A stretch of 64,000 nucleotides of DNA from Candidatus Nanosyncoccus sp. (GTDB lineage Bacteria > Patescibacteriota > Saccharimonadia > Saccharimonadales > Saccharimonadaceae), in assembly GCA_045603805.1 (NCBI GenBank), contig JAZUMU010000009.1, positions 6,944-70,943 of the forward strand, in the 5' to 3' direction. The notes below the pieces were generated by a model. It did no database searches, was not told where the DNA came from, and saw only the letters and a program-made list of their open reading frames with translations. The position numbers were made by a program, and so were the translations under genes. Positions 29,374-52,841 of this stretch are shown in pieces. Positions within the stretch are counted from its first letter, which is position 1. Every line of letters starts with the position of its first letter.

Positions 29374-29419
29374 TTTTACTATAGAAAATGCCCGACCAGA
29401 AGGTCGGATATTTTCTATG
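29374..29419. repeat. 46-nt hairpin repeat, copy 2 (B arm of attL)
   Basis: Same sequence as copy 1 with one loop mismatch (AGGA to AGAA). Joined through TG to the island end. Confidence 0.8.
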
Positions 29420-29426
29420 TGTTGCC

Positions 29427-29444
29427 ACGTCACCTTGGAGTACG
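29427..29444. repeat. left terminal inverted repeat (putative P' arm)
   Basis: ACGTCACCTTGGAGTACG is the exact reverse complement of 52742-52759. Confidence 0.8.
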
Positions 29445-29547
29445 TTTTAGCCCGAATCGTAAAATGACACTCTTGCACCAATTAATTGAGCATTATCGTA
29501 TGGGGCGTTGTCAAAAGAAAGATAAAACTACTATGGCGTTATTGCTG

Positions 29548-30411
29548 TTATTCGTCAGTCGGTGAATATACGGAATCTTTACCTATAATGCCTAAATTAA
29601 GTTTTTCCCCGCCGACTGCTATCTTTCCATTTTTCATGGGTTCAAAATATTTTCCGTCAGGGTATTTTGGCGAGAAGAGTTCCGGCACCATAATAATAAA
29701 TGGAACCGGCCCCCAACTATCTTGCTTCATCGATAGTTGTGCGTAACCGTATATTCCATAGTTTTCTATGTCATTGGAATAGAATACTTTCCAAATGTAA
29801 TCTGTTTTACTATTAGAATCGGGCAGCCAGATAAGACTTACTGAGCTGCTTCTTGGATTATCACTGCTTATGCTCCATCCATCGGTGATGTTATTTACCT
29901 TAAACTCTCCGATACAATAGTACATATCAGTCATTTCAGCCATAAAACCTGAGCCTATAAGGTTATAATTCTGATAGTAATTATTTAAAGTAGTTGCCGT
30001 ACTTAAACCCCAATCGTCAAATCCCGGCAATGATTTCCCATTGCTAACTTTTCCCCATGCAGCGTTAACGGTGTCGGTATTGGATAATAGTATCCAAGGG
30101 CTGAATTTCATGCTTACTTCAAATGTGTAGCCATCGCTATCTTCGTGGGTATAAGAAATTTCAGTCCAATCTATATCAATGGATGGAGTCTCTGTTGGCG
30201 CTTCTGTAGGCTTTTCTGTTGGTTTTGCGGTCGAGATTTCTGTGGCTACTTCAATTATATTATCGCTTGTTATTTGAGGTTGATCGATTTCGTTGCTAAT
30301 CGTATTGTCAGCTGAGTTACAACTGGTAAAAGATATGGTCATTATTATAGCGATTAATAATGATAATACCTTTTTTAGGTTCCTGTTTTCAGTAATGTTT
30401 ATTCTTTTCAT
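29548..30411 (-). CDS. lipoprotein, function unknown
   Basis: Signal peptide with lipobox ISFTSC, then a Thr/Pro/Glu-rich linker (KPTEKPTEAPTETP). Confidence 0.65.
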   Translation of the reverse strand: MKRINITENRNLKKVLSLLIAIIMTISFTSCNSADNTISNEIDQPQITSDNIIEVATEISTAKPTEKPTEAPTETPSIDIDWTEISYTHEDSDGYTFEVSMKFSPWILLSNTDTVNAAWGKVSNGKSLPGFDDWGLSTATTLNNYYQNYNLIGSGFMAEMTDMYYCIGEFKVNNITDGWSISSDNPRSSSVSLIWLPDSNSKTDYIWKVFYSNDIENYGIYGYAQLSMKQDSWGPVPFIIMVPELFSPKYPDGKYFEPMKNGKIAVGGEKLNLGIIGKDSVYSPTDE

Positions 30412-30432
30412 TTTGTTTCCCCTTAGATAATA

Positions 30433-31092
30433 TTACGGTCTTCTCTCTCCGCAGCCGCAGGTTCCGACGTAGACTGAGTTCACTTTGCCGCAAGAGGGAC
30501 ATTGCCATTCGTCTGCGCCAACCGCAGCATTTCGGTTTGGCTGAAGAATTGTTCCCATATGTTTTGGTGTACCACAACCGCAGGTGGTAACGTAGGACGG
30601 ATTGATCTTCAGACACTGAGGGCATTGCCATTCCGGACCTGCAGCTGAGCGTGTGGAGCTTTTTGTATCCCTCGGCTTCGATTCGCCGCACTCGCACTTT
30701 GACATAAGCATCGCGTTCATACGTCCGCATCTCGGACATTTCCAGCCTTTAGCTGTTTCGTTTTCTATAGGCTTGGCGTGTGATAATTTGGTGGTAGGCT
30801 GATGCACAAGCTCTCGCTCAAGATTTTGAGCGCTGTCTACAAGCTGACCGAAGCCGTAAAGCACATAGGTGCTGACAACCGAGATGATCGAGCCGAGAAT
30901 GATTTTTAAGATACCGCCCCATACGGTCACTCCCTGTACACCGGCGATTACGTTTCCGTAACTTGAAGCATACTTGCCCAGCTTCACGGCGTTCACAATG
31001 TCGATTATACCTAAAATGACACTGGCGATGATTCCTGCTACTGCAAGAAAGCTTGCTAAACCTTTGATTTTGTTTCCAATGTTTTCGTACAT
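30433..31092 (-). CDS. membrane protein with three C-terminal zinc-ribbon repeats
   Basis: Three TM spans, then three repeats of W[KQ]CP[RQS]CG...C.CG. SD is AGGAGG. Confidence 0.65.
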   Translation of the reverse strand: MYENIGNKIKGLASFLAVAGIIASVILGIIDIVNAVKLGKYASSYGNVIAGVQGVTVWGGILKIILGSIISVVSTYVLYGFGQLVDSAQNLERELVHQPTTKLSHAKPIENETAKGWKCPRCGRMNAMLMSKCECGESKPRDTKSSTRSAAGPEWQCPQCLKINPSYVTTCGCGTPKHMGTILQPNRNAAVGADEWQCPSCGKVNSVYVGTCGCGERRP

Positions 31093-31165
31093 GATTTTAC
31101 CTCCTGTGTTTGATAATTATTATTCAGCTCACACGAGTGAGCAAAAGGTCTTATTGATTTATTTC

Positions 31166-32140
31166 TTATTCGCTTGCTATCATCGATCCGTCTGATCCGT
31201 AGCTTATATTGTAAGATTCGCCTTCATCATCCTCAGATAGCTTCACAGTTATTCTTTGAACCAATCCTTCTTCATCTCTTTCAAATTCATAGATACGCTG
31301 GTTTTCGTCCGAAAGGTGCATTATACCGGATGTTCTGAAGCCATTGGCGTCATAATGAAATTCGAGCCTTGCTTGTTCGATGTGTTCATTATTACCATTA
31401 CCGCTGTCGACACCTTTTAAGTGCAGTTCGTATGTAATCTGATCCGCTGCACCGTCTGTGTTATATGAATAATGAGTGTGGCTGAATTGAGAACAGTTAT
31501 CCTCTTCAAAACGATGGTTTACATCGTACAAAGCGTCTTCTGAAAATCCTACGGAACCGTCATTAACGTCTTCTTTTGCAAACAGATTGACAGCCGATAT
31601 AGATTGGTCGTTGTCATATTCGAATGTGACAACGTAAGAGGTATTAGCAAAAAATAATCTTTCGATTCTACCATCGGTTGCGGTAATGACGCGATAAACG
31701 CCAAAATCACCGGCTTCGTCAGCGTGTTTTGTTATTCGAAGTTCGGATAAAGTATATCCGTTTTCCGGTTGCGACGAGGAGTCTTCTGTTAATGGATTAA
31801 GCAATCCTATAGGCGGATAAAGAGAATTCCTCGTCCCCGTTCCATAAAGCAAATACTCATAAGGAGATTCGTATGTAGACTTATATTGAATCAATACCAT
31901 ATTCTGATCTAATTCGTAAAGGCGAAAGCAGTATAAGGTGTTGATTTCCAAGCTCAGCGATTTGTCGAAATAACTTTTTACCTCAGACATTTCCGTCATA
32001 CCGGAGAATAGATTTTGTATATAGGGTTCGTTTGTGTTGCTCTGAGAATCGTTTTCTGTAGTTTCGGGTGTATTCAAGGAGCACCCTGTCATAAGGATTA
32101 TCAAAACCAAAGATATAAATGCTGTAAAGAATCTACTCAT
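31166..32140 (-). CDS. lipoprotein with YD/RHS-like short repeats
   Basis: Start MSRFF at a TAATG overlap with the upstream gene. Lipobox LMTGC. Motifs YNTDGAADQ, YDANGFRT and YGSDGSM. Confidence 0.65.
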   Translation of the reverse strand: MSRFFTAFISLVLIILMTGCSLNTPETTENDSQSNTNEPYIQNLFSGMTEMSEVKSYFDKSLSLEINTLYCFRLYELDQNMVLIQYKSTYESPYEYLLYGTGTRNSLYPPIGLLNPLTEDSSSQPENGYTLSELRITKHADEAGDFGVYRVITATDGRIERLFFANTSYVVTFEYDNDQSISAVNLFAKEDVNDGSVGFSEDALYDVNHRFEEDNCSQFSHTHYSYNTDGAADQITYELHLKGVDSGNGNNEHIEQARLEFHYDANGFRTSGIMHLSDENQRIYEFERDEEGLVQRITVKLSEDDEGESYNISYGSDGSMIASE

Positions 32141-33077
32141 TATTCTTTCTTCCTCCATTCCGGATTAGATGATACTACTGTTCCGTCAGATGAATAAAGG
32201 ACGTCATAAGTTGTACAATAACAGGACGGTCTATTCTTATCAAATGGATTTTGTTCGGAATATATTCTATTTACCGTTCCATCATTATTCCGATAATACT
32301 CAACATATTCTGTTTTATACTCTGTATCATCGTATCCTTGTTGAAACATATGACTTTCCCTAAGTCCGTCTTGGTCATAAGTGTACGTCACTGTCCAATG
32401 CCAATGATTGTTTTCGCTAATGGCTGATTGAAGAGTTCCGTCCGAATTGTAGTAAAATTTTATATATACGTTAGCGTTATCAAATGTTTTTGTCATATCA
32501 AACGCTTTATCGGACTTGGTTTTATAGTATGTGTTTATCTCGGAAATAGTATCATCAGAGTTATAACTAAAGCATGTGATTTCAAGCAACAGGTCGTTTG
32601 ACGGAGCATAACGTAGTATTCTTTCATACTGATCTTTAACAATATAAAAATCTGTATAATCAATTAATTTATTATAGTAATTAGGATACGATAGTTTTGA
32701 TAGGGTGTACTCATTATCGTCAACAGTTTGGTGTGACAACACTGTTTCTGTTATATCATCAAAGTATCCTTTATATGATAAAGCATATACAGAAGCGCCT
32801 CCGTTGTATCCAATATATTTTATTGTTGAAGTTTCTGTTTCACGATACTGAATAATGTCAAAGTTGTAGCCAAACAGATATGAATAATCATAAAACCGAA
32901 AAGAGTACAGTTCATCTATGCGTAAAAGCAGAGTTTTATCAAAATAGTTATATACTTCCGATAAATCGGATACAACAGAAAAACGATTTTGGACCCTTTT
33001 GGTATCTGCGTTGTCAGAGCAAGCAGAGGTAAAAACATAAAACAGAAAATCAATAATAATGCTGTTATCTTCTTCAT
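32140..33077 (-). pseudogene. paralogous lipoprotein gene with an apparent 1-nt frameshift in the signal-peptide region
   Basis: GGAG-ATG MKKITALLLIFCFMF is in one frame. The lipobox FTSAC and the rest of the protein are in another frame. That part includes LSEVYNYFDKTLLLRIDELY, homologous to the downstream paralog. The switch lies within T-runs at 33031-33049. Confidence 0.6.
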
Positions 33078-33114
33078 AATCTTTTCTCCATTAAACAAGT
33101 GGTATGTGATAAAA

Positions 33115-35316
33115 CTAATAGTTGCGTATGTATTCAATCAATGAAGATTGGTTAACAAGGTTTTCGCTCTTTATACGATCCCAATTAAACGCGTCGTCAG
33201 ATGATGATTTGTATTCTTCTTCACTGACTTCTTCGTCGTTGATTTTATAATAAGTTGTATAACCGGATGAATAATCATCTACATCCATTGTGCCGTTTTT
33301 AGTTACATAACATGAATCACCATCGAACATCAGGAAATGCCATCCGCTGTTCATCATCCCTCCTATATATGAAAACAATTCTCCGGTTTTTTCTCGATAT
33401 GTAAACACTCCTGCGGCGATCTCTTCGTTCTGAACGGTTCCATCTTCTATCCAGCATAGCTGATAAACACTTGCGTGAGCTCCGGTATCTGTGTGTATAA
33501 TCAATTCAGGCATGTCATCATCATTGATATAAAACAATTCACCGGAAAAATAAGATTTTTCCATACTATTCAGATAGTCTATATAGAGCTGTTTATAATC
33601 AGTTGTCTCAATAGAATTGGTTACAGGTTCTATTGGAGGGTCGGCGTTTTCATCTGCTGATTTTGTAACCGCAGGCAATTCGGGTATTCTATTGGTACTG
33701 CGGTAAAGCGTCCAATAGGATTTGCCGTCTATTACCTTTTCCGATACCTCAACGTAGTTGGTTTCAAGCACTCCGCCGGAATAATAGCTTGCTGTTCGGT
33801 CATACACAATGTAATACTTGTTGCCGTCATATCTGACGGTTTTGTAAGTCAACTGATAGCCGGGATCGCCAATCCCGCTGAGTCTGTTGTATAAATATTT
33901 CTTCCCGTCCAGTTCGTATTCATATAAGTATTGACCATGCTGGGGAGCAAACTGGCTTTTGTCTGCGCTCAAAGTAGCTTGCAGCATGTTGCTACACGTT
34001 TCTTCAGGTATATTAAGGATGTTATGCATCGCCCACAAGACCTTATCTTCATCAAAGGCGACATAACCATAATCATCGTACATCTTAAGAGGATCAGAAT
34101 TTACAGTCCAGTCTTCCAGTGCTGATTCTCCCGGATATATAGTCAGATTGAGGCAAGAAGGATGGCTTGCTATCATACCGACTAATTTGTCATAAATATT
34201 ATCGAGGTTGTTGCAGTCATAGTCTCTTACGCTCTCGCCTTCGCCGCCGGTATAGGCAAAGTTAAATTGATAAATAAACTGGTACATGCTGTCGGGAAGC
34301 TCAGACGGATCAACATCCACTACGGTGGGAGCTTCTGTAGGAGCGACGGTTTGCGGCTCCTGTGACGCTTCTTCCTGTGCTACAGCGATTGCTTCGGTTG
34401 CCTCGGTATTATCCGTTTTAGGATTCGTTATTGTCTTCCACGCGAATACTCCGCCGCCCGCGACTAATCCGATTGCAACGACTCCGGCTGCCAGCTTTCC
34501 CCACAGCGGAAAGGATGCCTTTGCCGCTACAGCCGCGTGCTTTGCTGCGCCTGTTGCTGTACGAGCTGTGTTGGCAACCGCATGAGCAGCGCTTGTTTGT
34601 CCGACAGGAGCGCTAAATAAGGCATTGTTGATCTGACTGTATATACCGGCAGCTGTTTTTGCTGATATTCCGCTTTTTTGGATTTGCCGGATGAAAACGC
34701 CAGCAAAGGGGATAAGCGCAACTCCTGCGGCGCCGTAAAACTTCTCTCCGGTTTTCTTCTCCTGTTCCTCAATCTCAGTACGGATTGCTTTGCGGGCAAG
34801 AAATAGTCTTGATTTTACCGTACCTTCTGAGCAGTCCATGATTTCGGCGATTTCTTCGATGCTCATTTCGTTAAAGTAATACAGCAGGATGGTTTCTTTC
34901 TGTACAACTGAGAGTTCATTAATAATCTTTCTAAGACGGCTTGAAAGATCGTCTCTCTCGGCGTATTGCTCCGGCAACAGTAGATCGGATTCGATCTGCA
35001 TGACTTCGCCGTCCTCGCTTTCGTCCTCAACAGACAGATTCGGCTTACTTCTGCGGAGCAAAGAATTACATTCATTGATAGTGATCCGCTGCAACCACGC
35101 GTTGAATGCGGCTGGATTATCCAGCTTATCAATATTCTGCCAAGCCTTAACAAAGGTTGTTTGTAGTATATCCTCTGCGTCGGCAGAGTTTTTGACTGTC
35201 ATTTGCGCCAGCGCATATATCTTTTCAAAGTACAGTTTGTACAACTCTTCAAAAGCATTCGTGTTCCCGTTCTTAGCGGCAAGCACCAATGCTGTTTCGC
35301 GATTTTTATCTGACAT
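33115..35316 (-). CDS. sigma-70 family (ECF-like) sigma factor fused to TM segment(s) and a large C-terminal extracytoplasmic domain
   Basis: Region 2 (FEELYKLYFEKIY, DILQTTFVKAW, AWLQRITINE) and region 4 (EIAEIMDCSEGTVKSRL). Hydrophobic spans follow (LWGKLAAGVVAIGLVAGGGVFAW), then about 430 aa. Confidence 0.75.
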   Translation of the reverse strand: MSDKNRETALVLAAKNGNTNAFEELYKLYFEKIYALAQMTVKNSADAEDILQTTFVKAWQNIDKLDNPAAFNAWLQRITINECNSLLRRSKPNLSVEDESEDGEVMQIESDLLLPEQYAERDDLSSRLRKIINELSVVQKETILLYYFNEMSIEEIAEIMDCSEGTVKSRLFLARKAIRTEIEEQEKKTGEKFYGAAGVALIPFAGVFIRQIQKSGISAKTAAGIYSQINNALFSAPVGQTSAAHAVANTARTATGAAKHAAVAAKASFPLWGKLAAGVVAIGLVAGGGVFAWKTITNPKTDNTEATEAIAVAQEEASQEPQTVAPTEAPTVVDVDPSELPDSMYQFIYQFNFAYTGGEGESVRDYDCNNLDNIYDKLVGMIASHPSCLNLTIYPGESALEDWTVNSDPLKMYDDYGYVAFDEDKVLWAMHNILNIPEETCSNMLQATLSADKSQFAPQHGQYLYEYELDGKKYLYNRLSGIGDPGYQLTYKTVRYDGNKYYIVYDRTASYYSGGVLETNYVEVSEKVIDGKSYWTLYRSTNRIPELPAVTKSADENADPPIEPVTNSIETTDYKQLYIDYLNSMEKSYFSGELFYINDDDMPELIIHTDTGAHASVYQLCWIEDGTVQNEEIAAGVFTYREKTGELFSYIGGMMNSGWHFLMFDGDSCYVTKNGTMDVDDYSSGYTTYYKINDEEVSEEEYKSSSDDAFNWDRIKSENLVNQSSLIEYIRNY

Positions 35317-35460
35317 TATGTACATCCCCCTTAGCTTTTCACTACATAGACGCAGAAACTTTTCATTTGGTTTAATGATTTTTAAATTTTTTCTAGAAAT
35401 AGTTTTAAAAATGCTTTATGTCTCTATAATGCCATATTCTCGTATGATAAACTAATATTG

Positions 35461-36063
35461 ATGGGAGGTAGGTTGAGATTAGATAAAACTAAGCGCAATC
35501 GAAAGTATCAATACAATAACCGGATAATCCAAAAAGTGATAATAGGATTAAACAAATCCCATCGGTGGCATATCACATTAAAACAGATAATCAATAAGAC
35601 TAAGCTGACAAAGCATACTTTATATTCTCATTACCCTGATATTGATAATGCTCTGAACACAATAGAGAGCGAACTGATTCATGAGTATAAGGATGAAATA
35701 TCACACGGGACAGCATCTTTAGCAAAAATCGTTCCGGATAAAAACCGGCGGTTGTTTTATATCACGATGCTGCATATGTCAAAGAATAAGGATGTTTTTA
35801 TAGCTGTCTGTGATGATATCGCTAACTATACATTACTGTATAAAATGATTGAAGAAGTGTATCCTATGCTTGATATCACTTGGTTTCCATTAAGTTCTCC
35901 CGCTCCAAGCGTCGGCAATGAAAGAGCAGATATGTATATCAGTATGTGCGTGGAAATACTGAGTAAATGGGGATATAAAACAAGTTGTAATATTCATAAA
36001 GCTGATAGATACATAAACAGGTTATTGCGAATCACATCGGATGCTTCCATGAGATGTAGATAG
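35461..36063 (+). CDS. TetR-like HTH transcriptional regulator (weak call)
   Basis: N-terminal ITLKQIINKTKLTKHTLYSHYPDIDNAL resembles the TetR HTH. Divergent from the sigma gene. The start is uncertain (ATG 35461 or TTG 35473). Confidence 0.45.
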   Translation: MGGRLRLDKTKRNRKYQYNNRIIQKVIIGLNKSHRWHITLKQIINKTKLTKHTLYSHYPDIDNALNTIESELIHEYKDEISHGTASLAKIVPDKNRRLFYITMLHMSKNKDVFIAVCDDIANYTLLYKMIEEVYPMLDITWFPLSSPAPSVGNERADMYISMCVEILSKWGYKTSCNIHKADRYINRLLRITSDASMRCR

Positions 36064-36280
36064 ACGTTTATTAGGAGAAAATAACTGCCTAAAATTCCCG
36101 ATGTAACATTTTTATTATGTTGTAAACTACTATACCATAATATATATAACTTTTCAAGAAAATGGTCTGCATTTCATTAAACAAATCCACACGACCTCTA
36201 TAAAGTATACATAGTAAATGCGCTTCGGATTTGGGAAATGTTCATAAATAAATGTAACAAAATAATAAGAATGTTAAATT

Positions 36281-36326
36281 CCCCTTATCCAAGTGCGGTA
36301 CAATGTACGCAAACTTGAATAAGGGG
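36281..36326. promoter_or_regulatory. 46-nt imperfect palindrome immediately upstream of the tyrosine recombinase gene
   Basis: CCCCTTATCCAAGT-GCGGTACAATGTACGCAA-ACTTGAATAAGGGG. 13 of 14 outer pairs match, and the spacer has an inner dyad GTACA-A-TGTAC. It ends 14 nt before the ATG. Confidence 0.4.
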
Positions 36327-36339
36327 TTGTATATTAATT

Positions 36340-36906
36340 ATGGCAAAAACCGAACCTATACGCGACAAAGAACAGATAAAGGCTTTAGCCGATTACTTTT
36401 TGAAACAAGGTCAAATGAGAAACTATGTCATGCTGATCATGGGAATATACACGGCTACAAGGATCAGCGATTTGTTGAACCTGAAATGGGATGATGTATA
36501 TAACCCGATAGCCAAATGCTTTCGTCAGCATTTGATATTGTTTGAACATAAGACCGGCAAGCGCAGAGCTATAGCCATTAATGAAAAGGTGGTTCATGCC
36601 CTGAGTATATATATGCCTTGCCGTAAAAGCGAATATATCTTTGATAACGGACGCGGCAAACCTCTCAGCCGCGTTCAGGCGTGGCGTATCATGCACGATG
36701 CCACTAAGGAGATGGGGATTGAAGATACCATAGCTTGTCACGGGCTGAGAAAAACATGGGGATACCATGCTTGGACAAGTCAAGCGGTATCCCCGGTAGT
36801 CATTATGGATGTTTATAATCATAGCAGCTATGATGTCACAAAGCGCTATCTCGGAGTAGAACAGGACGATTTGGATAAGGCATATTTAGGGATGAAGCTC
36901 GTCTAA
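36340..36906 (+). CDS. small tyrosine recombinase (phage-integrase catalytic domain only)
   Basis: ATRISDLLNLKWDDV (Arg I), HGLRKTWGYHA (H-x-x-R) and NHSSYDVTKRYL (catalytic Tyr). Only 188 aa. Confidence 0.8.
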   Translation: MAKTEPIRDKEQIKALADYFLKQGQMRNYVMLIMGIYTATRISDLLNLKWDDVYNPIAKCFRQHLILFEHKTGKRRAIAINEKVVHALSIYMPCRKSEYIFDNGRGKPLSRVQAWRIMHDATKEMGIEDTIACHGLRKTWGYHAWTSQAVSPVVIMDVYNHSSYDVTKRYLGVEQDDLDKAYLGMKLV

Positions 36907-39336: not shown

Positions 39337-39679
39337 AAGGGTTCATCTCCAGTAAGAGTACTAAAAGTATTATAATTATCTAGAGGCGAGACTTCAAGTG
39401 ATATTTCATAATTGATTATAAGTTTATTACTCAAATGGTTGAATTTCGATATGGTAAATCAGCATCAAATATACCTCTATTGCGAAAACACGTGTTGAAA
39501 GCATATTGTTGTATGATATTGACAAAATAAAACATCTGTGATATAATTCTTATATAGAATTATAGATTGATTCTATAGTACTTTTATAGGTTAAAAAGAG
39601 CATCTCAGATCATTGTCGAATTCGCTTATCACAAAATCATGATAAGCGATAAAGCAATGATCATATGGAGGTGTTCAAA

Positions 39680-40249: not shown

Positions 40250-40254
40250 TCTCG

Positions 40255-40281
40255 AAATCCCGCTGCCCGCGGGATTTTTTA
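40255..40281 (+). terminator. rho-independent terminator
   Basis: AAATCCCGC-TGCCC-GCGGGATTT followed by TTT. Confidence 0.65.
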
Positions 40282-40414
40282 TGCTAGAATATGCTGTTTT
40301 ATGTTTTGACCCAAAACGATTGCAATTATTGTCTTGATGCAGTAAAATGAGCGCGAGCTCAATAAATAATACAAAAAACAAAGTCCCGGCGCCGAGACGG
40401 AAAGGATTACAATT

Positions 40415-40654: not shown

Positions 40655-40668
40655 TAAGGAGGACTATC

Positions 40669-40875: not shown

Positions 40876-40906
40876 ATCTAATACAATCTGTGAGACCGCA
40901 AGTAAA

Positions 40907-41736: not shown

Positions 41737-42312
41737 ATGTCGAAACATAAAATCGAGAAAGAAGCACCGACTAACTATCGTGTGCCGAAAAATATTCCTG
41801 ATATCCCCAAAGCTACTACTATACTCTGCGATTATCCTTGGCCTAAGCATCAAGGGGGGCGACTCGGAGCTATAGAAAAATACGACCTTATGTCCATGGA
41901 ACGTATTTTGAAATTCCCATTAAAAGACCTTGCAGCAGATAATTGCACACTATGGTTGTGGACGACAAATGCTTGTCTGCCGGATGCCATACGGGTCATT
42001 GAAGAACAGGGGTTTTCATACCGAGGATACTATGTGTGGTGTAAAGCTAAACTAGGGCTCGGTTCTCAATATCTCCGCCAATGCACAGAGCTATGCGTCG
42101 TGGCGACACGCGGAAAAGTCAAGTTCAAAAATCACTCCCAAATGAACTGGGGAATCATGCCGACAACCATACATAGTGAGAAGCCGAGAGAATTCATTCC
42201 GATTATAGAACGTTTGTGCGACCCTCCGTATATGGAACTCTTCTGTCGTAGGCGCCCATCTAGCAATCAGGAATGGCTGTGTTGGGGATCAGAGACTGAG
42301 GGGGGGCAGTGA
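41737..42312 (+). CDS. MT-A70 family N6-adenine DNA methyltransferase (orphan)
   Basis: ILCDYPWP (DPPW variant), LWLWTTN, and HSEKPREF (HSxKP). Confidence 0.8.
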   Translation: MSKHKIEKEAPTNYRVPKNIPDIPKATTILCDYPWPKHQGGRLGAIEKYDLMSMERILKFPLKDLAADNCTLWLWTTNACLPDAIRVIEEQGFSYRGYYVWCKAKLGLGSQYLRQCTELCVVATRGKVKFKNHSQMNWGIMPTTIHSEKPREFIPIIERLCDPPYMELFCRRRPSSNQEWLCWGSETEGGQ

Positions 42313-42388
42313 CTTCTACATTCCAGGATACCCTGTTCCCAAATACTCCTTTGAAAAAGGCAACGACGAAAAGGAGGAGGTTTAATGT

Positions 42389-42616
42389 ATGTACGGCAGA
42401 AACAAAAAGGATACCGAAGACCACACGGATCGCGGTTTGCTCACACGACTTATAGAAGGCGTTATCATCTTCGCTATCCTTGCTTTCGCATTAAAGCTCG
42501 GCGTAGACGCTATTGTGTCCGTCAAAATACCGTTACTGATAATCGCAGTCATTATATGCGCCGCCGTTATTGGCTACCGAATCTACAAACACAAGAGGGA
42601 TCACGATGATTACTAA
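42389..42616 (+). CDS. small two-TM membrane protein
   Basis: AAGGAGGAGG SD. Two hydrophobic spans. Confidence 0.55.
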   Translation: MYGRNKKDTEDHTDRGLLTRLIEGVIIFAILAFALKLGVDAIVSVKIPLLIIAVIICAAVIGYRIYKHKRDHDDY

Positions 42617-44747: not shown

Positions 44748-44748
44748 T

Positions 44749-45768: not shown

Positions 45769-45852
45769 TGGAGGTTTGCAGTATGTAAGCGGGCAAATTA
45801 TGAGACAAAATAAACCGAAAGATTTTAAAAAATTTAACAAGTTAGGAGCAAT

Positions 45853-46257
45853 ATGGAAAACATCCTTACCAATAATCAACTTTTAGACAAGTTCAAGGAA
45901 GTGTTTAATGACGATTACGACGAGAAAGTAAAAGAAGCAATCGAGATAATCAACGATGTAGACAGCAAGAAGAACAGAATGCTTTTAGAGATTTGCCAAT
46001 CAAAAAAGGACATGATTATCCCTATAGAAGCCGAAACAGCTTCCGGTAACAGATACAAAACAACGATAGGGTTGAAGAAACTGGCTACTATTATGATTAA
46101 CTGTGAGTACCCACTGCTGTTTACTATCTCGCACGAACCGGATTTTCACATGATCAAGGAAATAGCCTACAGCATTGGCTTCGAATATGTTATATTGCCT
46201 GATTATATGATCTGTGATTTTTTCCGAAGCTGTCACTATGATGAAGATACAAATTAA
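45853..46257 (+). CDS. hypothetical protein (AT-rich)
   Basis: AGGAG SD; no recognisable motif. Confidence 0.5.
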   Translation: MENILTNNQLLDKFKEVFNDDYDEKVKEAIEIINDVDSKKNRMLLEICQSKKDMIIPIEAETASGNRYKTTIGLKKLATIMINCEYPLLFTISHEPDFHMIKEIAYSIGFEYVILPDYMICDFFRSCHYDEDTN

Positions 46258-46386
46258 AATAAACAATCGGTTTATGGAGTCTTAAGATCTGTTCTGCTTA
46301 CATACTCCAAGCGCCCAAAAACAAACCAATATGCTCCTTCGGGAGCGCCACGAATAATAACACTAAGACGAAAGGAGGCACACGCA

Positions 46387-46614
46387 ATGAAAAACAGCGG
46401 CTTAATTGGGCTGAAAGTCGCTAACAACGGTCTGGGACTGAGAACAGCTTTAGAATCACAGTACGATATTACTGAGCTAAAGCATGTCGGGAATTTTGTA
46501 TTTCGGGCTGAACTCAAAGACCAGACGAGCTTGGAAATACAGACAAAGCCGGTGGAACTCGCAGCATTCCACATCCGCATTGTCAGTATCAAAAAGCTCG
46601 AAAAAGCAACATAG
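46387..46614 (+). CDS. hypothetical protein
   Basis: AAAGGAGG SD 8 nt upstream. Confidence 0.5.
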   Translation: MKNSGLIGLKVANNGLGLRTALESQYDITELKHVGNFVFRAELKDQTSLEIQTKPVELAAFHIRIVSIKKLEKAT

Positions 46615-46738
46615 CGGTTATTGATCGCAAACGCACATTAAAAGTCAGAAAAACTGAACATCACGACAGCGATATACGCACATCTTCTGCGTGTATCGCA
46701 GAGAGTACGTATTCGCACCGCAAAGGAGGCGAGTAAAA

Positions 46739-47683
46739 ATGTTCAGTACAGAATTCGGTATCGAGATTGAATTTACCGGAATTACCCGCCATAGGGCAGC
46801 GCTTGCCGCACAGGAGGTAATCGGCGGTACAGTTTCCTACATCGGCGGTTTTTACGGCACCTACCATATTACCGCACTTGACGGACGAATCTGGAAATTC
46901 ATGTTTGACGGCAGTATCATAACACAGAAACGCGAAAATGGACAAAGAGTATCTGCAAACAAGCAATACAGCGTTGAGTTGGTCAGTCCTATCGTTACCT
47001 ATCGAGAGGATATCAATCTGCTCCAAAAGCTTATACGCCATCTGCGGAAAGCAGGAGGATTCACCAACAAATCCTGCGGTATTCATATCCATCTGGATGG
47101 AGAAAAACATACACATCGCAGCCTATGGAACTTTATCAACCTTGTAGCAAGCCGTAATGATTTGTTTTATAAAGCATTAAGAATCCCTGCAGAGCGGAGA
47201 CGATACTGTAAAAAGATGGATACGCTTTTGGTAACCGCATTAAACCGTATGAAGCCAAAAACCTTTCAGGATATCGAAGAGGTGTGGTATCTCGGTTATC
47301 AGCAAGAGGTTCATCAACACTATCACGAAAGCCGTTATCATTTTCTCAATCTTCATAGTTTCTTTCACGGAAATCATACGATTGAGCTTCGCGGGTTTAA
47401 CAGTGAACTTCACGCCGGAAAGGTACGAGCGTACATTGTGTTTGCTTTGGCGATGAACCATCAGGCGTTAACGCAGCGCTTCGCTCGATATAAAAAGGTG
47501 CAGTCTGATAATGAAAAGTTTGCGATGAGGGTTTACCTTGTGCGAATCGGATTATCCGGTGCAGAGTTCAAAAACTGCCGCAAACACCTTTATGAACACT
47601 TATCCGGTAATGCTGCTTGGCGTTACGGATCAAGAGAAAACTGTAGAAGCAGGAGGAACGAATTATGTGTATCTACTACATAG
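46739..47683 (+). CDS. amidoligase family protein (glutamine-synthetase-like fold)
   Basis: FGIEIEFTGI, SVELVSPI, and CGIHIHLDG. SD is AAAGGAGG. Followed by a GGCT gene, a pairing described for this family. Confidence 0.7.
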   Translation: MFSTEFGIEIEFTGITRHRAALAAQEVIGGTVSYIGGFYGTYHITALDGRIWKFMFDGSIITQKRENGQRVSANKQYSVELVSPIVTYREDINLLQKLIRHLRKAGGFTNKSCGIHIHLDGEKHTHRSLWNFINLVASRNDLFYKALRIPAERRRYCKKMDTLLVTALNRMKPKTFQDIEEVWYLGYQQEVHQHYHESRYHFLNLHSFFHGNHTIELRGFNSELHAGKVRAYIVFALAMNHQALTQRFARYKKVQSDNEKFAMRVYLVRIGLSGAEFKNCRKHLYEHLSGNAAWRYGSRENCRSRRNELCVSTT

Positions 47684-48123
47684 CCTATGGCTCAAATCTT
47701 AATACCCGGCAGATGAAGTATCGTTGTCCCACTGCAAAGGTGATTGGTAAAACGTCTTTGGATGGCTGGAGACTTCGTTTTCGCGGAACGCCGCACAACG
47801 CTGTTGCCACCATTGAACAGGCAGAAGGTTATTCCGTGCCTGTCGGCGTTTGGAAGATCGGCAAAGAGGATGAGGCGAGCTTAGACATCTATGAGGGCTA
47901 TCCTCGTTTGTATCGCAAGGAAACCATGACTATCACTTTAGAAGATAAGCCTATTGAAGCGATGGTATATATCATGAATGAGAGTTATCCCTATAATGAT
48001 CCTTGCTATGATTATCTCTGTACGATCCGTGACGGATACACCGCTTTTGGTATGGACAAAGCTATACTGCGTGAAGCAGTCGCAGCCGCAAAGGAGGTGC
48101 AATACAATGACAGAAAAGGTTAA
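47665..48123 (+). CDS. gamma-glutamylcyclotransferase (AIG2/GGCT-like) family protein
   Basis: YIAYGSNLNTRQMKYRCP N-terminal motif, and YEGYPRLY. Confidence 0.75.
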   Translation: MCIYYIAYGSNLNTRQMKYRCPTAKVIGKTSLDGWRLRFRGTPHNAVATIEQAEGYSVPVGVWKIGKEDEASLDIYEGYPRLYRKETMTITLEDKPIEAMVYIMNESYPYNDPCYDYLCTIRDGYTAFGMDKAILREAVAAAKEVQYNDRKG

Positions 48124-48286
48124 GAACCAGATCTTTGCGATCCGCAACAGCGGTGAGACTAATATGCTGGATACCAACATGGTACAGTATATCGCTAATC
48201 GTGAGGGTTACTATGAGCTGGTCGTTTATATTGAGGAAAACCGCAGTAAATATTTTCATTTTATTATGACCGGTGAAGAGGGGTGA
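48107..48286 (+). CDS. small conserved mobile-element protein (DUF5049-like)
   Basis: AAGGAGG SD. MTEKVKNQIFAIRNSGETNMLDTNMV pattern. Confidence 0.5.
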   Translation: MTEKVKNQIFAIRNSGETNMLDTNMVQYIANREGYYELVVYIEENRSKYFHFIMTGEEG

Positions 48287-48294
48287 GATGCAGT

Positions 48295-48615
48295 ATGAGT
48301 CAACATGAAATTGCAATCACTCGTATTATCCGCAACTGGATTATCGGGACGATAGACGGATTAGAGTTTGAGGCAAAGGTTTACGATATTCCCTCAGAAT
48401 TTGGGATAGACAACGGAAAGGTCTGTAAACTCGACGTCTATCGTGATAGAGATAATGGTGAGATTGTCGCCTACGAGCGTGGCTGGGAAAAGTATCCTGC
48501 CGGAGAACAAGAAGACCTGATAGAGTCCATATTGGAATACTGTAAAAAATTGCCGTCGGCAGATGACTGGCAATTAGAAAACGGAGAAATAATCAGTAAG
48601 GAGGGATTTCAATGA
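48295..48615 (+). CDS. hypothetical protein
   Basis: SD is GAGGGGTGA. ORF MSQHEIAITR... Confidence 0.5.
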   Translation: MSQHEIAITRIIRNWIIGTIDGLEFEAKVYDIPSEFGIDNGKVCKLDVYRDRDNGEIVAYERGWEKYPAGEQEDLIESILEYCKKLPSADDWQLENGEIISKEGFQ

Positions 48616-49274
48616 TTATCCGTTATAATGTCAATGGCAAAGAAAGAAAACGACTTGCACAGGCACTTGGCAAGATTACTATGTGGGAACCGGTTTATAT
48701 TGGAGCACCTACGTTCGCTTACAGAGTACACAACTATCTTGTGGATCGTACCGGAGCGATTGAATGCCCGCCTTCTGTCGGTAAGCTGATCGTAGATCGC
48801 ATCGTGGAACTTTTGAGAGAAGAGGGCTTTGTCCCAGTATCTATTGAAGGCACTGCTCTGACAATCAGGATTCCCAAAGAAACCGTCTCTCCTGAGTCAA
48901 TCAATCGTCTTAGACAGATTATTCACAGCAAAGCCGTTTTATTTGAGCGTGCTTTCAGGACGAGTGTCATCTCTATAGAGGAATCTGACAAAGAGATCTG
49001 TTTCCCTTGGTTTACTGTATATGGAGAGGATGGTGAGTCGAAAGCCTATACTGATTTTGTTATTGCCCTTTGCGGTATGGCAGAAGCAAGAAAACGAATC
49101 ACCGCAAAACCGTATAACGGCAGTAACGACAAATTTGCTATGCGGCTATTTCTGGTACAACTCGGCATGAAGGGTGAGAAATATAAGCAGAGCCGCAAAA
49201 TCCTGCTCCGGTATCTTACCGGCAACAGCGCATGGCGAGACGGAGCACCGAACAGAGGCGAAGAAGCAAAATGA
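48612..49274 (+). CDS. hypothetical protein sharing a C-terminal module with the amidoligase
   Basis: SD is AAGGAGGG. The C-terminal KFAMRLFLVQLGMKGEKYKQSRKILLRYLTGNSAWRDG is about 50% identical to residues at 47507-47629. Confidence 0.55.
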   Translation: MIIRYNVNGKERKRLAQALGKITMWEPVYIGAPTFAYRVHNYLVDRTGAIECPPSVGKLIVDRIVELLREEGFVPVSIEGTALTIRIPKETVSPESINRLRQIIHSKAVLFERAFRTSVISIEESDKEICFPWFTVYGEDGESKAYTDFVIALCGMAEARKRITAKPYNGSNDKFAMRLFLVQLGMKGEKYKQSRKILLRYLTGNSAWRDGAPNRGEEAK

Positions 49275-49501
49275 AACCTTTACCAAAGAGAGAAACTATC
49301 ACCTGCCTACGCGAGCGCTTTCCCAAAGGGACCCGCGTCGAGCTGATTTCGATGGATGATCCGTATAGCAAGCTCAAGCCCGGTGATCGCGGGACTGTAG
49401 AATTCGTAGACGACATTGGAACTATACATATAAGCTGGGACTGTGGAAGCGGTCTGGGCGTTGTGTATGGTGAAGATAGAATCCGAATTGTCTCACAGTA
49501 G
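49271..49501 (+). CDS. DUF4314-like small protein
   Basis: ATGA overlap. GTRVELISMDDPYSKLKPGDRGTVEFVDDIGTIHISWDCGSGLGVV motif. Confidence 0.6.
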   Translation: MKPLPKRETITCLRERFPKGTRVELISMDDPYSKLKPGDRGTVEFVDDIGTIHISWDCGSGLGVVYGEDRIRIVSQ

Positions 49502-49552
49502 TACATTCAGATTCCCCAGCTCGAAAGGGCTGGGGATTACCAAAACAAAACT

Positions 49553-49861
49553 ATGGAAAGGAATGATATGATGACAGCTGAACAATTAGAGGTTATTGCT
49601 GTTTTGCGTAGCTTGAATTATCCCTACAGCTTTATTGCTAATGAGCTGAAGCTGTCTATAAATACGGTTAAGTCCATCTGCCGCAGGAAGGGCTACAAAG
49701 CCTTTGGCAGTCGCAAAACTAAAAGTGAAAAAGCGATGCCGCCAATCTGTAAATGTTGCCACATGCCACTCCCTGAAGGTATGAGAAGCGACGCAAAGTT
49801 TTGCTCTCCCTATTGCCGTGCCAAATGGCGCAGACAGAATTTCAGAATCGTTGAAAAATAG
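49553..49861 (+). CDS. small HTH (sigma region-4-like) protein with a C-terminal Cys cluster
   Basis: YSFIANELKLSINTVKSICRRKG, then CKCCH...CSPYC. Confidence 0.5.
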   Translation: MERNDMMTAEQLEVIAVLRSLNYPYSFIANELKLSINTVKSICRRKGYKAFGSRKTKSEKAMPPICKCCHMPLPEGMRSDAKFCSPYCRAKWRRQNFRIVEK

Positions 49862-49918
49862 ACTTGACATTCTTCCCCAACAGAGGGTGAATGTGTGCTG
49901 TGATAGGAGGCAGTATCA

Positions 49919-51262
49919 ATGAAAATAACTGAAATACCAGCAAACCCACAAGGAGAAAAAAGTATTCGCGTAGCGGCTTATGCCCGTGTATCAACAGATA
50001 AGGATGCCGCTTTTCATTCATTAGAGGCTCAACAGGCTTATTATGAGGAATATATCAGAAAACATCCAAACTGGACGCTCGTAGATATATACTCGGATAA
50101 CGGTATCTCAGGAACTATCATTAGCCGCCCTGAGTTTCAGCGCATGTTAGAGGATTGCCGCAACGGAAAGGTAGATTTAGTCATCACTAAATCCATTACC
50201 CGTTTTGCTCGTAACACGGTTATCCTGTTAGAAACGATCCGCGAGTTAAAAACTCTCGGTGTTGATGTGCTTTTTGAAAAAGAGAATATGCACAGTATCA
50301 GTCCGGATGGTGAACTGCTTCTGACTCTCCTAGCTATGTACGCCGAGGAGGAGGCACGTTCTGCCAGCGAAAACCAAAAATGGCGTATCCGTAAGAGATT
50401 TGAAAATGGTGAGCCGTGGTACGGTAAAATGCTGGGGTACCGGCTAATAGACGGGAAGTTGATTGTTGTCCCAGAGGAGGCGGATATTGTAAGAATGATT
50501 TTTAATGATTATATTTCCGGGATGGGGCTGCAGGCAATAGCAAAAAAGCTTAACGCTATGGGTATTCCCGCTAGGCATTCAGATTATTGGCGACCGAATA
50601 CTATCAGCAAAATTTTACACAATGAGAAATACACTGGCAATTTACTGCTCCAAAAAACGTATCGCTCAGATTTTCGGACAAAAAGAAAATTGATAAATAA
50701 AGGTGAATTAAGGAGATACTTCGTTGAGAATAGTCATGAAGCTATTATTGAAAGCGAAACCTTTAATGCTGTCCAAGAAGAGATGAAGCGGCGTTACTTT
50801 ATGTTTTTTTCAACTCAACAAAACAGTGGACGAACACCTCTATTTAAGGGGATTATTCACTGCGGGCTATGTTACACTCCATATCGGAAACGAACGGCAA
50901 ATTCTAGCAGTAATCCTAAAACTATGTGGATATGCGGAAAGTATTTTATTTTTGGAAAATCTGCTTGTCCTTCGCAACAAGTACCGGAAGATGTTTTAAT
51001 CGAAAAGACTAAAGAAATACTGAGCATAAACGTATTAAGCAGAGAAACTATCATCGAAAAAATCGCAGAGATAGAGGTAACCGGTCGTTTTCATTTGAGA
51101 TATGCTCTCAAAGATGGTTCCGTTCACTATGTGACATGGCAGCATAAATCTCGAAAGGAAAGTTGGACTGACGAAATGAAAGAAGCAGCGCGACAAAGGG
51201 CATTGCGACACAATGCGGAAAGGAGGAAAAATGAGCAAGGACATGAAGATTACCGTCATTGA
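49919..51262 (+). CDS. large serine recombinase 1
   Basis: N-terminal resolvase domain (AAYARVSTDKD, ITKSITRFARN), a recombinase domain and a Cys-rich zinc-ribbon region. Confidence 0.85.
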   Translation: MKITEIPANPQGEKSIRVAAYARVSTDKDAAFHSLEAQQAYYEEYIRKHPNWTLVDIYSDNGISGTIISRPEFQRMLEDCRNGKVDLVITKSITRFARNTVILLETIRELKTLGVDVLFEKENMHSISPDGELLLTLLAMYAEEEARSASENQKWRIRKRFENGEPWYGKMLGYRLIDGKLIVVPEEADIVRMIFNDYISGMGLQAIAKKLNAMGIPARHSDYWRPNTISKILHNEKYTGNLLLQKTYRSDFRTKRKLINKGELRRYFVENSHEAIIESETFNAVQEEMKRRYFMFFSTQQNSGRTPLFKGIIHCGLCYTPYRKRTANSSSNPKTMWICGKYFIFGKSACPSQQVPEDVLIEKTKEILSINVLSRETIIEKIAEIEVTGRFHLRYALKDGSVHYVTWQHKSRKESWTDEMKEAARQRALRHNAERRKNEQGHEDYRH

Positions 51263-52517
51263 GTCTACAAAGCAATTTATTGAAAAAGAGGATAATCAAC
51301 CAACTCATAAGTTGCGGGTTTCCGCTTATGCACGCGTTTCTACTGAACAGGATGAACAGCAATCCAGCTATGAGGCACAGGTGAATTACTACACAGCATA
51401 TATCCAAAATAATCCGGATTGGGAATTTGTAGGTATATTCGCTGACGAAGGCATTACCGGTACCAACACTAAAAAGCGTGATGGATTTAACAAAATGATT
51501 AGCAAAGCAATGAACGGCGAGATAGACTTGATTCTCACAAAATCCATATCCCGATTTGCGCGTAATACCGTAGATACTCTTCAGATTGTCCGTGAGCTAA
51601 AGGCTGTAGGTGTAGAAGTATGGTTCGAAAAAGAAAATCTCCATACCTTTGATCCCAAATGCGAGGTAATGCTGACAATAATGGCTTCTCTCGCACAGGA
51701 AGAGAGCCGTTCTATCAGTGAGAATGTTCGATGGGGCAAGCAACGCAGTATGCAGAAAGGAAATGTATATATGGCGTATTCTCGGTTCCTGGGGTACCGC
51801 AAAGGTGCAGATGGTCGTCCTGAGATAGTACCGGATGAAGCGAAGATTGTTCGTTCAATATATCAAATGTTTTTAGATGGTAATACTATCCGACATATAG
51901 CCGACCATCTGACAAAGCAGGAGATTCCCACACCATCCGGCAAAAGTAAATGGAGTGTTAGTACAGTGAGAAGTATCCTATCCAATGAGAAGTATAAAGG
52001 TGATGCTTTACTTCAAAAATCATATACGGTTGACTACCTTACAAAAGAAGTGCGTAAAAACAACGGGGAGGTAAAACAATACCTTATACAAAACTCTCAC
52101 GAACCTATTATTGAGCCGGATGTATTTGACGCGGTACAAAAGGAGCTATCCAAGAGAAATACATATCGCGCCAAAAAGCGTGATAATAGTCCTTTTTCTA
52201 ATAAGTTAGTCTGTGGCGACTGCGGCAGCTTTTATGGTCACAAAGTGTGGCATAATCACGCTAATACCGAAAGAAATGATGTTTGGTACTGTAATCATAA
52301 GTATTCAAACGCTGAGAAATGTCAGACTCCAGTACTGCAAGAAGACGACATTAAACAGGCTTTTGAAGAGTTATTGAAAAAGATAGGGTGTGAAGACGCA
52401 TCTTACTCCGATAAATCATGGCAAAAAACAGTTGATTTTCTTGAAATCTTCAAAGACTCACGTTTGCTATTTCATCTAACTGATGGAAGAATGGTAGAAA
52501 TTATGTTGCCAAAATAG
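51231..52517 (+). CDS. large serine recombinase 2
   Basis: SAYARVSTEQDEQ, LTKSISRFARNTVD, and CGDCGS...CNHKY. SD is AAGGAGG. Overlaps recombinase 1 by 32 nt. Confidence 0.85.
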   Translation: MSKDMKITVIESTKQFIEKEDNQPTHKLRVSAYARVSTEQDEQQSSYEAQVNYYTAYIQNNPDWEFVGIFADEGITGTNTKKRDGFNKMISKAMNGEIDLILTKSISRFARNTVDTLQIVRELKAVGVEVWFEKENLHTFDPKCEVMLTIMASLAQEESRSISENVRWGKQRSMQKGNVYMAYSRFLGYRKGADGRPEIVPDEAKIVRSIYQMFLDGNTIRHIADHLTKQEIPTPSGKSKWSVSTVRSILSNEKYKGDALLQKSYTVDYLTKEVRKNNGEVKQYLIQNSHEPIIEPDVFDAVQKELSKRNTYRAKKRDNSPFSNKLVCGDCGSFYGHKVWHNHANTERNDVWYCNHKYSNAEKCQTPVLQEDDIKQAFEELLKKIGCEDASYSDKSWQKTVDFLEIFKDSRLLFHLTDGRMVEIMLPK

Positions 52518-52540
52518 TCTTGTACATTATGAAAACCTAA

Positions 52541-52566
52541 AGCGTCGCAAAATGCGGCGCTTTTTC
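52541..52566 (+). terminator. rho-independent terminator
   Basis: AGCGTCGC-AAAAT-GCGGCGCT (one G-U pair) followed by TTTT. Confidence 0.55.
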
Positions 52567-52741
52567 AATGCGATATTAAAGCTAAGTTATGCGTGTCAGA
52601 ACTGGTGCACCTTTATTAATTTACTCACTAAATGAACAAAAGCACTCTGTATATTGGTGCACTCATCGGCGTTGAAATGGATTATGACTCTATACATAAA
52701 AAGAAAACCCCCGATAAATCAGGGATTTTCCTTACGTCGCC

Positions 52742-52759
52742 CGTACTCCAAGGTGACGT
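52742..52759. repeat. right terminal inverted repeat (putative P arm)
   Basis: CGTACTCCAAGGTGACGT, followed by CTTAATG-TG and the tRNA 3' end. Confidence 0.8.
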
Positions 52760-52766
52760 CTTAATG

Positions 52767-52841
52767 TGGCTGGGGTGGTAGGACTCGAACCCACGAATGG
52801 CGGGACCAGAACCCGCTGCCTTACCACTTGGCGACACCCCA
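52767..52841 (-). tRNA. tRNA-Gln (anticodon CTG), CCA end encoded
   Basis: The reverse complement folds by hand. Acceptor TGGGGTG/CACCCCA, anticodon stem GCGGG/CCCGC with loop TTCTGGT, T loop TTCGAGT. Confidence 0.9.

Follow-up and report, generated by a model that had tools for sequence, protein, structure and literature searches.

The 64,000-nt stretch of DNA analysed here (the window, to which coordinates refer unless another contig is named) lies within contig C9 of a Candidatus Nanosyncoccus sp. genome from the Saccharibacteria (818,514 bp in 25 contigs, 95% complete; the 36 same-genus genomes drawn are, 36 of 36, of 0.5-1.0 Mb), and it carries, against an intact transfer RNA (tRNA) gene, tRNA-Gln(CTG), a putative mobile element whose two ends mirror each other (Table 1). 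At the left end (29411-29444) the sequence reads TTTTCTA-TG-TGTTGCC-ACGTCACCTTGGAGTACG, and at the right end (52742-52775) it reads CGTACTCCAAGGTGACGT-CTTAATG-TG-GCTGGGG. The 18-nt arms (29427-29444 and 52742-52759) form a perfect inverted repeat, 100% complementary and 23,297 nt apart, with a spacing of 7 nt between arm and TG at either end. At up to three mismatches the 18-mer has two sites in the window, which are the two arms, and a mean of 0.00 in 100 dinucleotide-preserving shuffles of the window. Joined to each other, the ends give an attP dyad of arm (18), 7, TG, 7 and arm (18), and two tandem genes for large serine recombinases (LSRs) adjoin the right end. We conclude that 29420-52768 is very probably a 23,349-bp integrative mobilizable element (IME) inserted by its tandem serine recombinase or recombinases through a 2-bp TG crossover at the end of tRNA-Gln. 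An earlier note on this DNA had described the end strings, the perfect repeat 7 nt inside a shared TG, the intact tRNA-Gln, the position of the TG within the encoded CCA and the two recombinases, and had predicted an empty site TTTTCTA-TG-GCTGGGG; all of these were recovered, the last in a metagenomic contig.

The position of the crossover follows from the tRNA gene and from that contig. Because the Rfam tRNA model, which spans 52770-52841, stops at 52770, the encoded CCA corresponds to the TGG at 52767-52769, and the right TG to the CA of that CCA. The contig, from a rumen metagenome (X1 record 2, 290 nt), matches 52767-52986 over 220 nt with one differing letter; leftward follow 70 letters that do not fit there, the last 30 of which are identical to 29388-29417 (hairpin 2, in its AGAAGG variant). 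Comparison of attL, attR and this natural empty site leaves exactly 2 bp, the TG, common to both junctions, in agreement with a 2-bp crossover and with no longer identity between attL and attR. Since the contig joins the left flank to the tRNA at the TG, the insert measures 23,349 bp with a 2-bp overlap (29420-52768 or, equally, 29418-52766). A k-mer misjoin appears unlikely because no 31-mer links the region of 29388-29417 with that of 52767 in the host genome. Other right-flank contigs of X1 differ from the window by 8/231 and 21/1105 letters, and we therefore regard the X1 strain, whose divergence over the right flank is about 0.5-3.5% in all, as a close relative without the element. In two further genomes of the genus (G027 and G028) the tRNA-Gln gene, the right flank and the terminator hairpin abutting the TGG are present and the element is absent; the ABC-transporter gene ends 3.7 kb from tRNA-Gln in G027 and 25.9 kb from it here. 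This interval is a variable hot spot: it spans 3.7 kb at locus L025 (G027) and holds 8 kb of unrelated genes, including a cation-efflux gene, in G004 (L024, G004:C6:46700-53700).

Both recombinases have the domains of LSRs, with the N-terminal resolvase domain PF00239 at E = 1e-33 and 1e-34 and with PF07508 (Recombinase) and PF13408 (zinc ribbon) above cut-off in both. Their genes overlap by 50 nt, 250 nt separate the end of the second gene from the right TG, and the proteins share 39% identity over 383 aa. Alignment to PDB 3g13 places the catalytic motif at RVAAYARVSTD in recombinase 1 and RVSAYARVSTE in recombinase 2, in both of which we take the S of RVS to be the nucleophile; matches in the PDB include SPbeta YokA, TP901-1 and phiC31 integrase. 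We infer that one or both proteins catalyse integration, and the tandem, overlapping frames would imply a joint or divided function of the paralogues. One same-genus genome has three tandem serine recombinase genes (L053, G031:C35:24378-28523).

Two features of the end sequences deserve separate mention. The motif TGGTGCA stands about 88 and 139 nt from the P arm and, inverted, 30 nt from the P' arm, with identical spacing in a Ruminococcus relative (G278, below) and in right-end remnants in G004 and G148, and locus L071 has eight copies; it may be an accessory binding site. Moreover, the arm resembles part of dnaK. A third copy in the host genome, with one mismatch (G000:C1:15172-15189), lies inside the dnaK codons for VLQGDV, and at up to two mismatches the 18-mer occurs at 20 loci of the genus, of which 16 are dnaK, three encode LLQGDVGSGKT and one is the G004 remnant. 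The dnaK matches (L028-L046) have 0-2 mismatches and are exact in some genomes; the likeness is probably a coding coincidence.

Related elements are found in the same genus. Matches to recombinase 2 at E <= 1e-10 occur in 55 of 251 genus genomes, the host (G000) included; the match table gives tandem recombinase pairs in 12 same-genus genomes besides the host, and the record Candidatus Nanosyncoccus alces carries the same pair. The elements on G004:C3 and G034:C33 are syntenic with 35.5-52.5 kb of the window, with amino acid identities in G004 (tblastx) of 89% for the coupling protein, 86-90% for the relaxase, 78% for recombinase 1 and 68% for recombinase 2. These two elements lack the leftmost 6 kb of the element described here, a stretch of variable cargo (29548-36063), except for 35473-36078, which G004 has as well. 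In addition, right-end remnants made up of arm, 7 nt and TG, without recombinase genes in their vicinity, stand at tRNA-Gln in G004 and at a tRNA-Ala fragment in G148.

Outside the phylum, the nearest homologues of recombinase 2 are in Bacillota-named records: a Ruminococcus metagenome-assembled genome (MAG; 79% identity), a Clostridia MAG (74%), an Agathobaculum isolate (70%) and a Pseudoflavonifractor isolate (65%). The 68.7-kb Ruminococcus contig G278:C36 carries an element with 84% nucleotide identity to the window over 4.1 kb, in flanks of about 50% G+C that encode ornithine carbamoyltransferase, PlsX, DegV and a FakA-like protein; because of this base composition and these genes we take the contig to be a genuine Bacillota-type chromosome. 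Its element begins, after the flank, with TG-TGTTGCC-ACGTCACTGTGGAGTACG, which has the same spacer as in the window and an arm differing at two positions, and ends with TGACCTCCAAGGTGTCGT-CCAAATA-TG-GTGGAG..., a tRNA-like 3' end that ARAGORN calls as transfer-messenger RNA (tmRNA) at a relaxed threshold only. A quick recombinase tree of 85 rows (LG+G4, SH-aLRT only), which leaves out L069 and L094 (scores identical to L051 and L060) and the recombinase-2-like open reading frames (ORFs) shorter than 380 aa (L088, L122, L123 and L133), needs five label changes for its 12 Saccharibacteria rows, of which the starred branches force at least four, a count that MAG binning errors could inflate. Subject to such errors and to the quality of the tree, this suggests repeated exchange.

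A survey of 80 related recombinase-2 loci with ARAGORN extends the choice of target to the family. It returned 27 tRNA or tmRNA genes in 22 loci, and in 19 of the 80 loci an opposite-strand tRNA (12 loci, nine anticodons) or tmRNA (7 loci) follows recombinase 2; in those 19 the clade-specific, conserved element end reaches right to the TGG of the tRNA or tmRNA. Homologues of recombinase 2 that are 95-98% identical and have an identical 45-nt end stand at tmRNA, tRNA-Ala(CGC), tRNA-Arg(CCG) and tRNA-Leu(GAG). The arrangement arm-N7-TG before a tRNA-type 3' end recurs in G004 (tRNA-Gln), G148 (tRNA-Ala fragment), L067 (tRNA-Leu), L071 (tRNA-Thr), L068 and G278, and in G278 both ends of this type were identified. 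The more distant clade B, to which the 95-98% identical homologues belong and whose arms are unrelated, has arm-9 nt-TG at the tRNA and, in three genomes, a far arm on the same contig 13-56 kb away; the two far ends examined read arm-9 nt-CA followed by unrelated flanks. These mirror the arm-9 nt-TG at the tRNA, so that clades with unrelated arms seem to have their crossover alike at the TG of the CCA end. The recombinase pair is tandem in 54 of 78 loci, with nine more cut by a contig end. Altogether, five independent lines (the 2-bp overlap, the empty site, G027 and G028, G278, and the ends of clade B) agree in supporting LSR-mediated insertion at the TG, as the earlier note had proposed from the DNA of the window.

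Several observations weigh against this interpretation. No circular attP junction was seen in four ruminant-gut runs, in which the element is covered by short fragments and nowhere at high identity, too poorly for a missing junction to be evidence of absence (the runs sharing words with the region are ruminant-gut metagenomes, with shares of at most 0.21, all in the form of Logan contigs, not raw reads). The exact right-end 27-mer had no match in the metagenome contig collection, and the left-end pattern none in the metagenome and viral contig collections. For the elements on G004:C3 and G034:C33, whose left boundaries may fall outside the stretches searched, the longest exact inverted repeats there measured 14 and 12 nt, none reaching 15 nt, and at L067, L068 and L071, which are Bacillota loci, a second arm was not found on the same contig at up to three mismatches. 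The G+C content of the whole element (40.6%) is close to that of the genome (40.95%). Finally, a 17-nt direct repeat, TGGCTGGGGTGGTAGGA (29243-29259 and 52767-52783), brackets the region as expected of a tyrosine-integrase island, and a gene for a tyrosine recombinase (PF00589) lies inside the element.

These last two observations, together with the displaced fragment that tRNA-gene islands typically leave according to the relevant passages of PMC4383910, would fit an island at 29260-52766 placed by a tyrosine recombinase with a crossover in the 3' part of the tRNA, the inverted repeats being incidental. We consider this very unlikely. The empty-site contig joins hairpin 2 (29388-29417) to the tRNA, so that 29260-29419 stays where the element is missing, and the same unit of tRNA fragment, core and hairpin, here called module X, stands at tRNA-Arg and tRNA-Val without an island and has a core that matches in 39 of the 121 genomes of the genus. 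Only 188 aa long, the tyrosine recombinase lies 7 kb from the nearest end and travels with related elements elsewhere, and the G278 relative has TG-flanked arms with no such repeat noted. A tyrosine-integrase island should have the displaced fragment at its far end and a full-length integrase by the attachment site; the fragment here is that of module X, and the assignment was rejected. The 188-aa protein matches the NCBIfam Xer and tyrosine-type DNA invertase models, all below cut-off, and is 78% identical in G004 (tblastx). Its gene converges on that of the NB-ARC-type NTPase with a 21-nt overlap and is kept in the G004 and G034 elements, and the NTPase is partly kept in G004.

Module X is a feature apart from the recombinase element. 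At 29182-29259, 175 bp upstream of attL, there is a repeat, overlooked in the earlier note, of the left-flank hairpin, the TG and a further 15 nt of the tRNA; it contains a second attB-like copy (29225-29259) from which the T-loop is absent. The module is retained in the empty site, and the recombinase element entered the proximal copy, which is continuous with the tRNA. The layout of the module, namely hairpin plus tRNA 3' fragment, about 35 nt, conserved core, and hairpin plus complete tRNA, recurs beside tRNA-Arg(GCG) and tRNA-Val(TAC) in the host and in G027, with no island there, and there are up to seven scored core matches per genome. RNAalifold gives 14 pairs in the core, ten with compensatory changes; 94.7% of cells are paired versus 42-55% with the partners slid, and none of 500 shuffles reached the covariation score. 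Rfam had no match to the module: a scan of 28900-29700 gave one chance-level hit (E = 0.96), and at the gathering threshold two tRNAs were returned and nothing else.

Beside tRNA genes, module X occurs as a dispersed unit of about 150 nt (window 29182-29419; G000:C14:59904-60200; G000:C9:706-1000; loci L165-L191), with a consensus of a displaced tRNA 3' fragment of 17-19 nt together with a duplicate of the terminator hairpin, a variable hairpin, the conserved core N6-GGGCGTC-N3-TCG-hairpin-CTC-N3'-TCCTA-N6' and, at its end, a copy of the tRNA T-arm that folds back and has a tail complementary to the tRNA fragment. At L168 and L181, in relatives of the genus, the core is fused at the T-loop to a tRNA-Gln body beside another tRNA-Gln copy, and the module replaces about the last 20 nt of one tandem tRNA. 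Module X possibly represents a structured RNA of a new type, or else a miniature element with the T-loop as its insertion site. Further left, the minus strand at 28460-28500 has a promoter-like TTGACA-17 nt-TATAAT that matches dozens of sites in genus genomes at 80-97% identity and is probably a strongly conserved consensus promoter.

Table 1 Features of the element, its ends and its target in the window
Feature	Position	Strand	Evidence or remark
Native left flank with module X, outside the recombinase element	29182-29419		63-nt direct repeat D1
Module X: terminator-like hairpin + 17-nt tRNA-Gln 3' fragment	29203-29259		D1 repeat
Module X: structured core	29260-29369		Covariation
Module X: second hairpin, abutting TG	29370-29417		Sequence
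Left TG crossover copy (attL)	29418-29419		Only 2 bp common to junctions and empty site
P' half-site: 7-nt spacer TGTTGCC + 18-nt arm ACGTCACCTTGGAGTACG	29420-29444	+	Repeat search; left end of G278 alike
TGGTGCA motif, 30 nt inside P' arm, candidate accessory site	29474-29480	-	Position relative to arm same in G278
Variable cargo, six ORFs	29548-36063		Pfam, NCBIfam
Zinc-ribbon protein	30433-31092	-	Pfam, NCBIfam
ECF-sigma fusion, 736 aa	33115-35325	-	Pfam, NCBIfam
Small tyrosine recombinase, 188 aa, catalytic domain only, invertase-sized	36340-36906	+	PF00589, E = 8.8e-25
STAND/NB-ARC-type NTPase, 816 aa	36886-39336	-	PF00931, E = 6.8e-7; FxSxx_TPR below cut-off; no PADLOC match
MT-A70 DNA methyltransferase	41737-42312	+	PF05063; PADLOC MTase_II, E = 9.1e-35
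VirD4-like type IV coupling protein, 725 aa	42570-44747	+	PF10412, PF02534; TraD and CD1115-family below cut-off
MobC-superfamily relaxase (Replic_Relax), 339 aa	44749-45768	+	PF13814, E = 1.5e-36
Accessory genes: amidoligase, GGACT, DUF5049, DUF7678, 220-aa amidoligase-like, DUF4314, 102-aa ORF	46691-49861	+	Pfam, PHROGs; amidoligase, GGACT, DUF5049, DUF7678 and DUF4314 genes within 46691-49501
Large serine recombinase 1, 447 aa	49919-51262	+	Resolvase + Recombinase + Zn_ribbon_recom
Large serine recombinase 2, 434 aa	51213-52517	+	Resolvase + Recombinase + Zn_ribbon_recom
Right-end non-coding region: TGGTGCA at 52603 and 52655; hairpin at about 52710-52735	52518-52741	+	Kept in G004 and G148 remnants and in G278
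P half-site: 18-nt arm CGTACTCCAAGGTGACGT + 7-nt spacer CTTAATG	52742-52766	+	Repeat search
Right TG crossover copy (attR) = CA of encoded CCA	52767-52768		ARAGORN, Rfam, empty site
tRNA-Gln(CTG), intact, target gene	52767-52841	-	ARAGORN; Rfam, 57.1 bits

The composition of the element bears on whether it belongs to this genome at all. The earlier note had held that composition differs from the flanks and that interior genes have strong Shine-Dalgarno sites. The first claim stood for tetranucleotides, since for six of the 11 overlapping 5-kb element windows no more than 2.5% of the 278 windows outside lie at so large a distance, and failed for whole-element G+C content, although inside the element one 5-kb window has the genome's minimum (33.6%, z = -3.1) and two others are high (45%, z = 1.9). 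The second held for the conserved right half, with 1.81 GGAGG-plus-start sites per kb at 39.5-52.8 kb, and not for 29.4-39.5 kb (0.50 per kb; rest of the genome, 0.68). Atypical tetranucleotide usage, an assembly in 25 contigs and nearest recombinase-2 relatives in Bacillota-named records are what an assembly or binning artefact, a Bacillota element misjoined into a Saccharibacteria contig, might produce; such an artefact is highly improbable given that both junctions lie at the same dinucleotide with symmetrical arms, that both flanks are syntenic with same-genus genomes, that tandem pairs occur in 12 same-genus genomes besides the host, the two checked being syntenic elements, and that right-end remnants stand at tRNA ends in G004 and G148.

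The genes inside the element indicate what kind of element was inserted. We compared 27 internal ORFs with Pfam, ten unassigned ORFs with PHROGs and ten cargo proteins with PADLOC. Among the 27 ORFs no component of a type IV secretion system (T4SS) was found, nor any hit of the VirB4, VirB6 or VirB8 type, and neither these nor the ten ORFs compared with PHROGs include capsid, terminase or tail proteins, so that we rejected a prophage; PADLOC found no defence match in the cargo proteins besides the methyltransferase. IMEs have an integrase and a relaxase of their own and no mating-pore genes; the element has this combination and, in addition, a coupling protein. Because the coupling protein, the PF13814 relaxase (a family classed in the MobC relaxase superfamily in the relevant section of PMC5357655) and the LSRs are present and T4SS and phage structural genes are not, the element is, by its gene content, an IME and neither a prophage nor self-transmissible. 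The DNA of its coupling protein and relaxase had no match in plasmids at blastn sensitivity.

Transfer would need a helper T4SS or mating pore. In the host genome, one 750-aa frame (AAA_10 match, 25.6 bits) is a weak VirB4-like candidate, and CPR (candidate phyla radiation) genomes commonly carry FATA-type T4SS according to a 2025 preprint (10.1101/2025.01.22.634366). The weakness of this helper candidate, the lack of a circular form in the runs and of a second copy in the host genome, and the remnants without recombinase genes that the tiny genomes of G004 and G148 keep would all be in line with a fixed, decaying remnant, inserted by a serine recombinase and since deprived of excision or transfer. 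We think this rather unlikely: the arms are perfect, the frames of the recombinases, coupling protein and relaxase are open, and a closely related strain, that of X1, is without the element, which makes its presence or absence polymorphic at close range.

Large serine integrases act as dimers that, bound at attP and attB, synapse, cleave the central dinucleotide, rotate and religate. For the IME at tRNA-Gln we propose that one or both tandem recombinases would insert the element by recombining the attP dyad with an attB made up, on one side, of the terminator hairpin that follows tRNA-Gln(CTG) and, on the other, of the tRNA gene's own CCA/acceptor end. Recombinase dimers on both sites would synapse, cut the central TG, rotate and religate, and the non-palindromic TG would fix the orientation. 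The tRNA-Gln gene remains intact after insertion. A circular intermediate might then be mobilized by a helper T4SS together with the element's own coupling protein and MobC-type relaxase. The family with tandem recombinases is widespread in Bacillota, occurs in Saccharibacteria as well and inserts at the TG of the CCA end of many different tRNA and tmRNA genes.

Several known systems resemble parts of this picture. The streptococcal IME_Class_8 elements of PMC5357655 likewise lack mating-pore genes and carry a compact module in which a VirD4-type coupling protein and a MobC/PF13814 relaxase accompany a serine integrase; unlike them, the element described here has two tandem recombinases instead of one, the CCA end of an intact tRNA as target, a 0.82-Mb Saccharibacteria host and about 10 kb of extra cargo. 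Insertion at a tRNA CCA end also differs from the published picture in which, by the general statement of a 2017 review (PMC5704250), serine-integrase IMEs insert within genes. The Dehalococcoides ssrA islands are similar by their description in PMC3146451, being integrative and mobilizable, with two co-oriented serine recombinase genes (DsiA/DsiB, likened there to CcrAB) and the tRNA-like target ssrA; here, unlike there as far as that account extends, only 2 bp are common and the crossover lies in the CCA, and whereas DsiA is described as small and without a DNA-binding domain, both paralogues here have the three LSR domains. These islands are the only literature precedent for the choice of target that we found, and later or supplement-only descriptions are possible (for example in the supplementary tables of PMC12084326 and PMC5357655, which may list serine-integrase elements at tRNA genes).

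Two further comparisons concern the recombinases. As in SCCmec with CcrA/CcrB, two tandem LSR genes belong to a non-conjugative integrative element at the 3' end of a conserved gene; the target and the att sequences are unrelated to those of SCCmec. Membership in CcrA, CcrB or CcrC was rejected, the NCBIfam scores of 149 and 130 bits falling far short of the cut-off of 900, and those of 60-63 bits of the cut-off of 700 (60-149 bits versus cut-offs of 700-900 overall). With the integrases of Bxb1, phiC31, A118/LI and TP901-1 and SPbeta SprA the recombinases share the domain order, the 2-bp crossover and, as reconstructed here from the ends, a putative attP dyad of about 50 bp; phage-type integrases are single enzymes with one fixed attB, whereas here there are a paralogue pair, TGGTGCA motifs and many tRNA and tmRNA targets.

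Serine integrases are preferred tools for the insertion of large DNA, and to our knowledge every one described so far depends on an attB of its own. That near-identical members of the present family stand at the CCA end of four tRNA or tmRNA targets suggests recognition of a universal, non-disruptive site. We tentatively propose, with less than even confidence, that the tandem recombinases are a general tRNA-end integrase that crosses over at the TG encoding the CA of the CCA and that recognises, not one gene, but features common to all tRNA and tmRNA genes, such as the T-loop at a fixed distance from the CCA. If so, a landing site would be ready in any bacterium with CCA-encoding tRNA genes, and the paralogues and TGGTGCA motifs may split the work between a symmetrical attP and an asymmetrical attB or accessory sites. 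Such an integrase would also explain why rumen Bacillota and the ultra-small Saccharibacteria share one type of element, possibly as host and epibiont. Relaxases are reported to be rare in CPR genomes (109 in 103 genomes, by the figures given in 10.1101/2025.01.22.634366). A delimited element in a Saccharibacteria genome of 0.82 Mb, with an 84% identical relative on a Bacillota chromosome, offers concrete evidence of recent gene flow between CPR bacteria and Bacillota in the ruminant gut.

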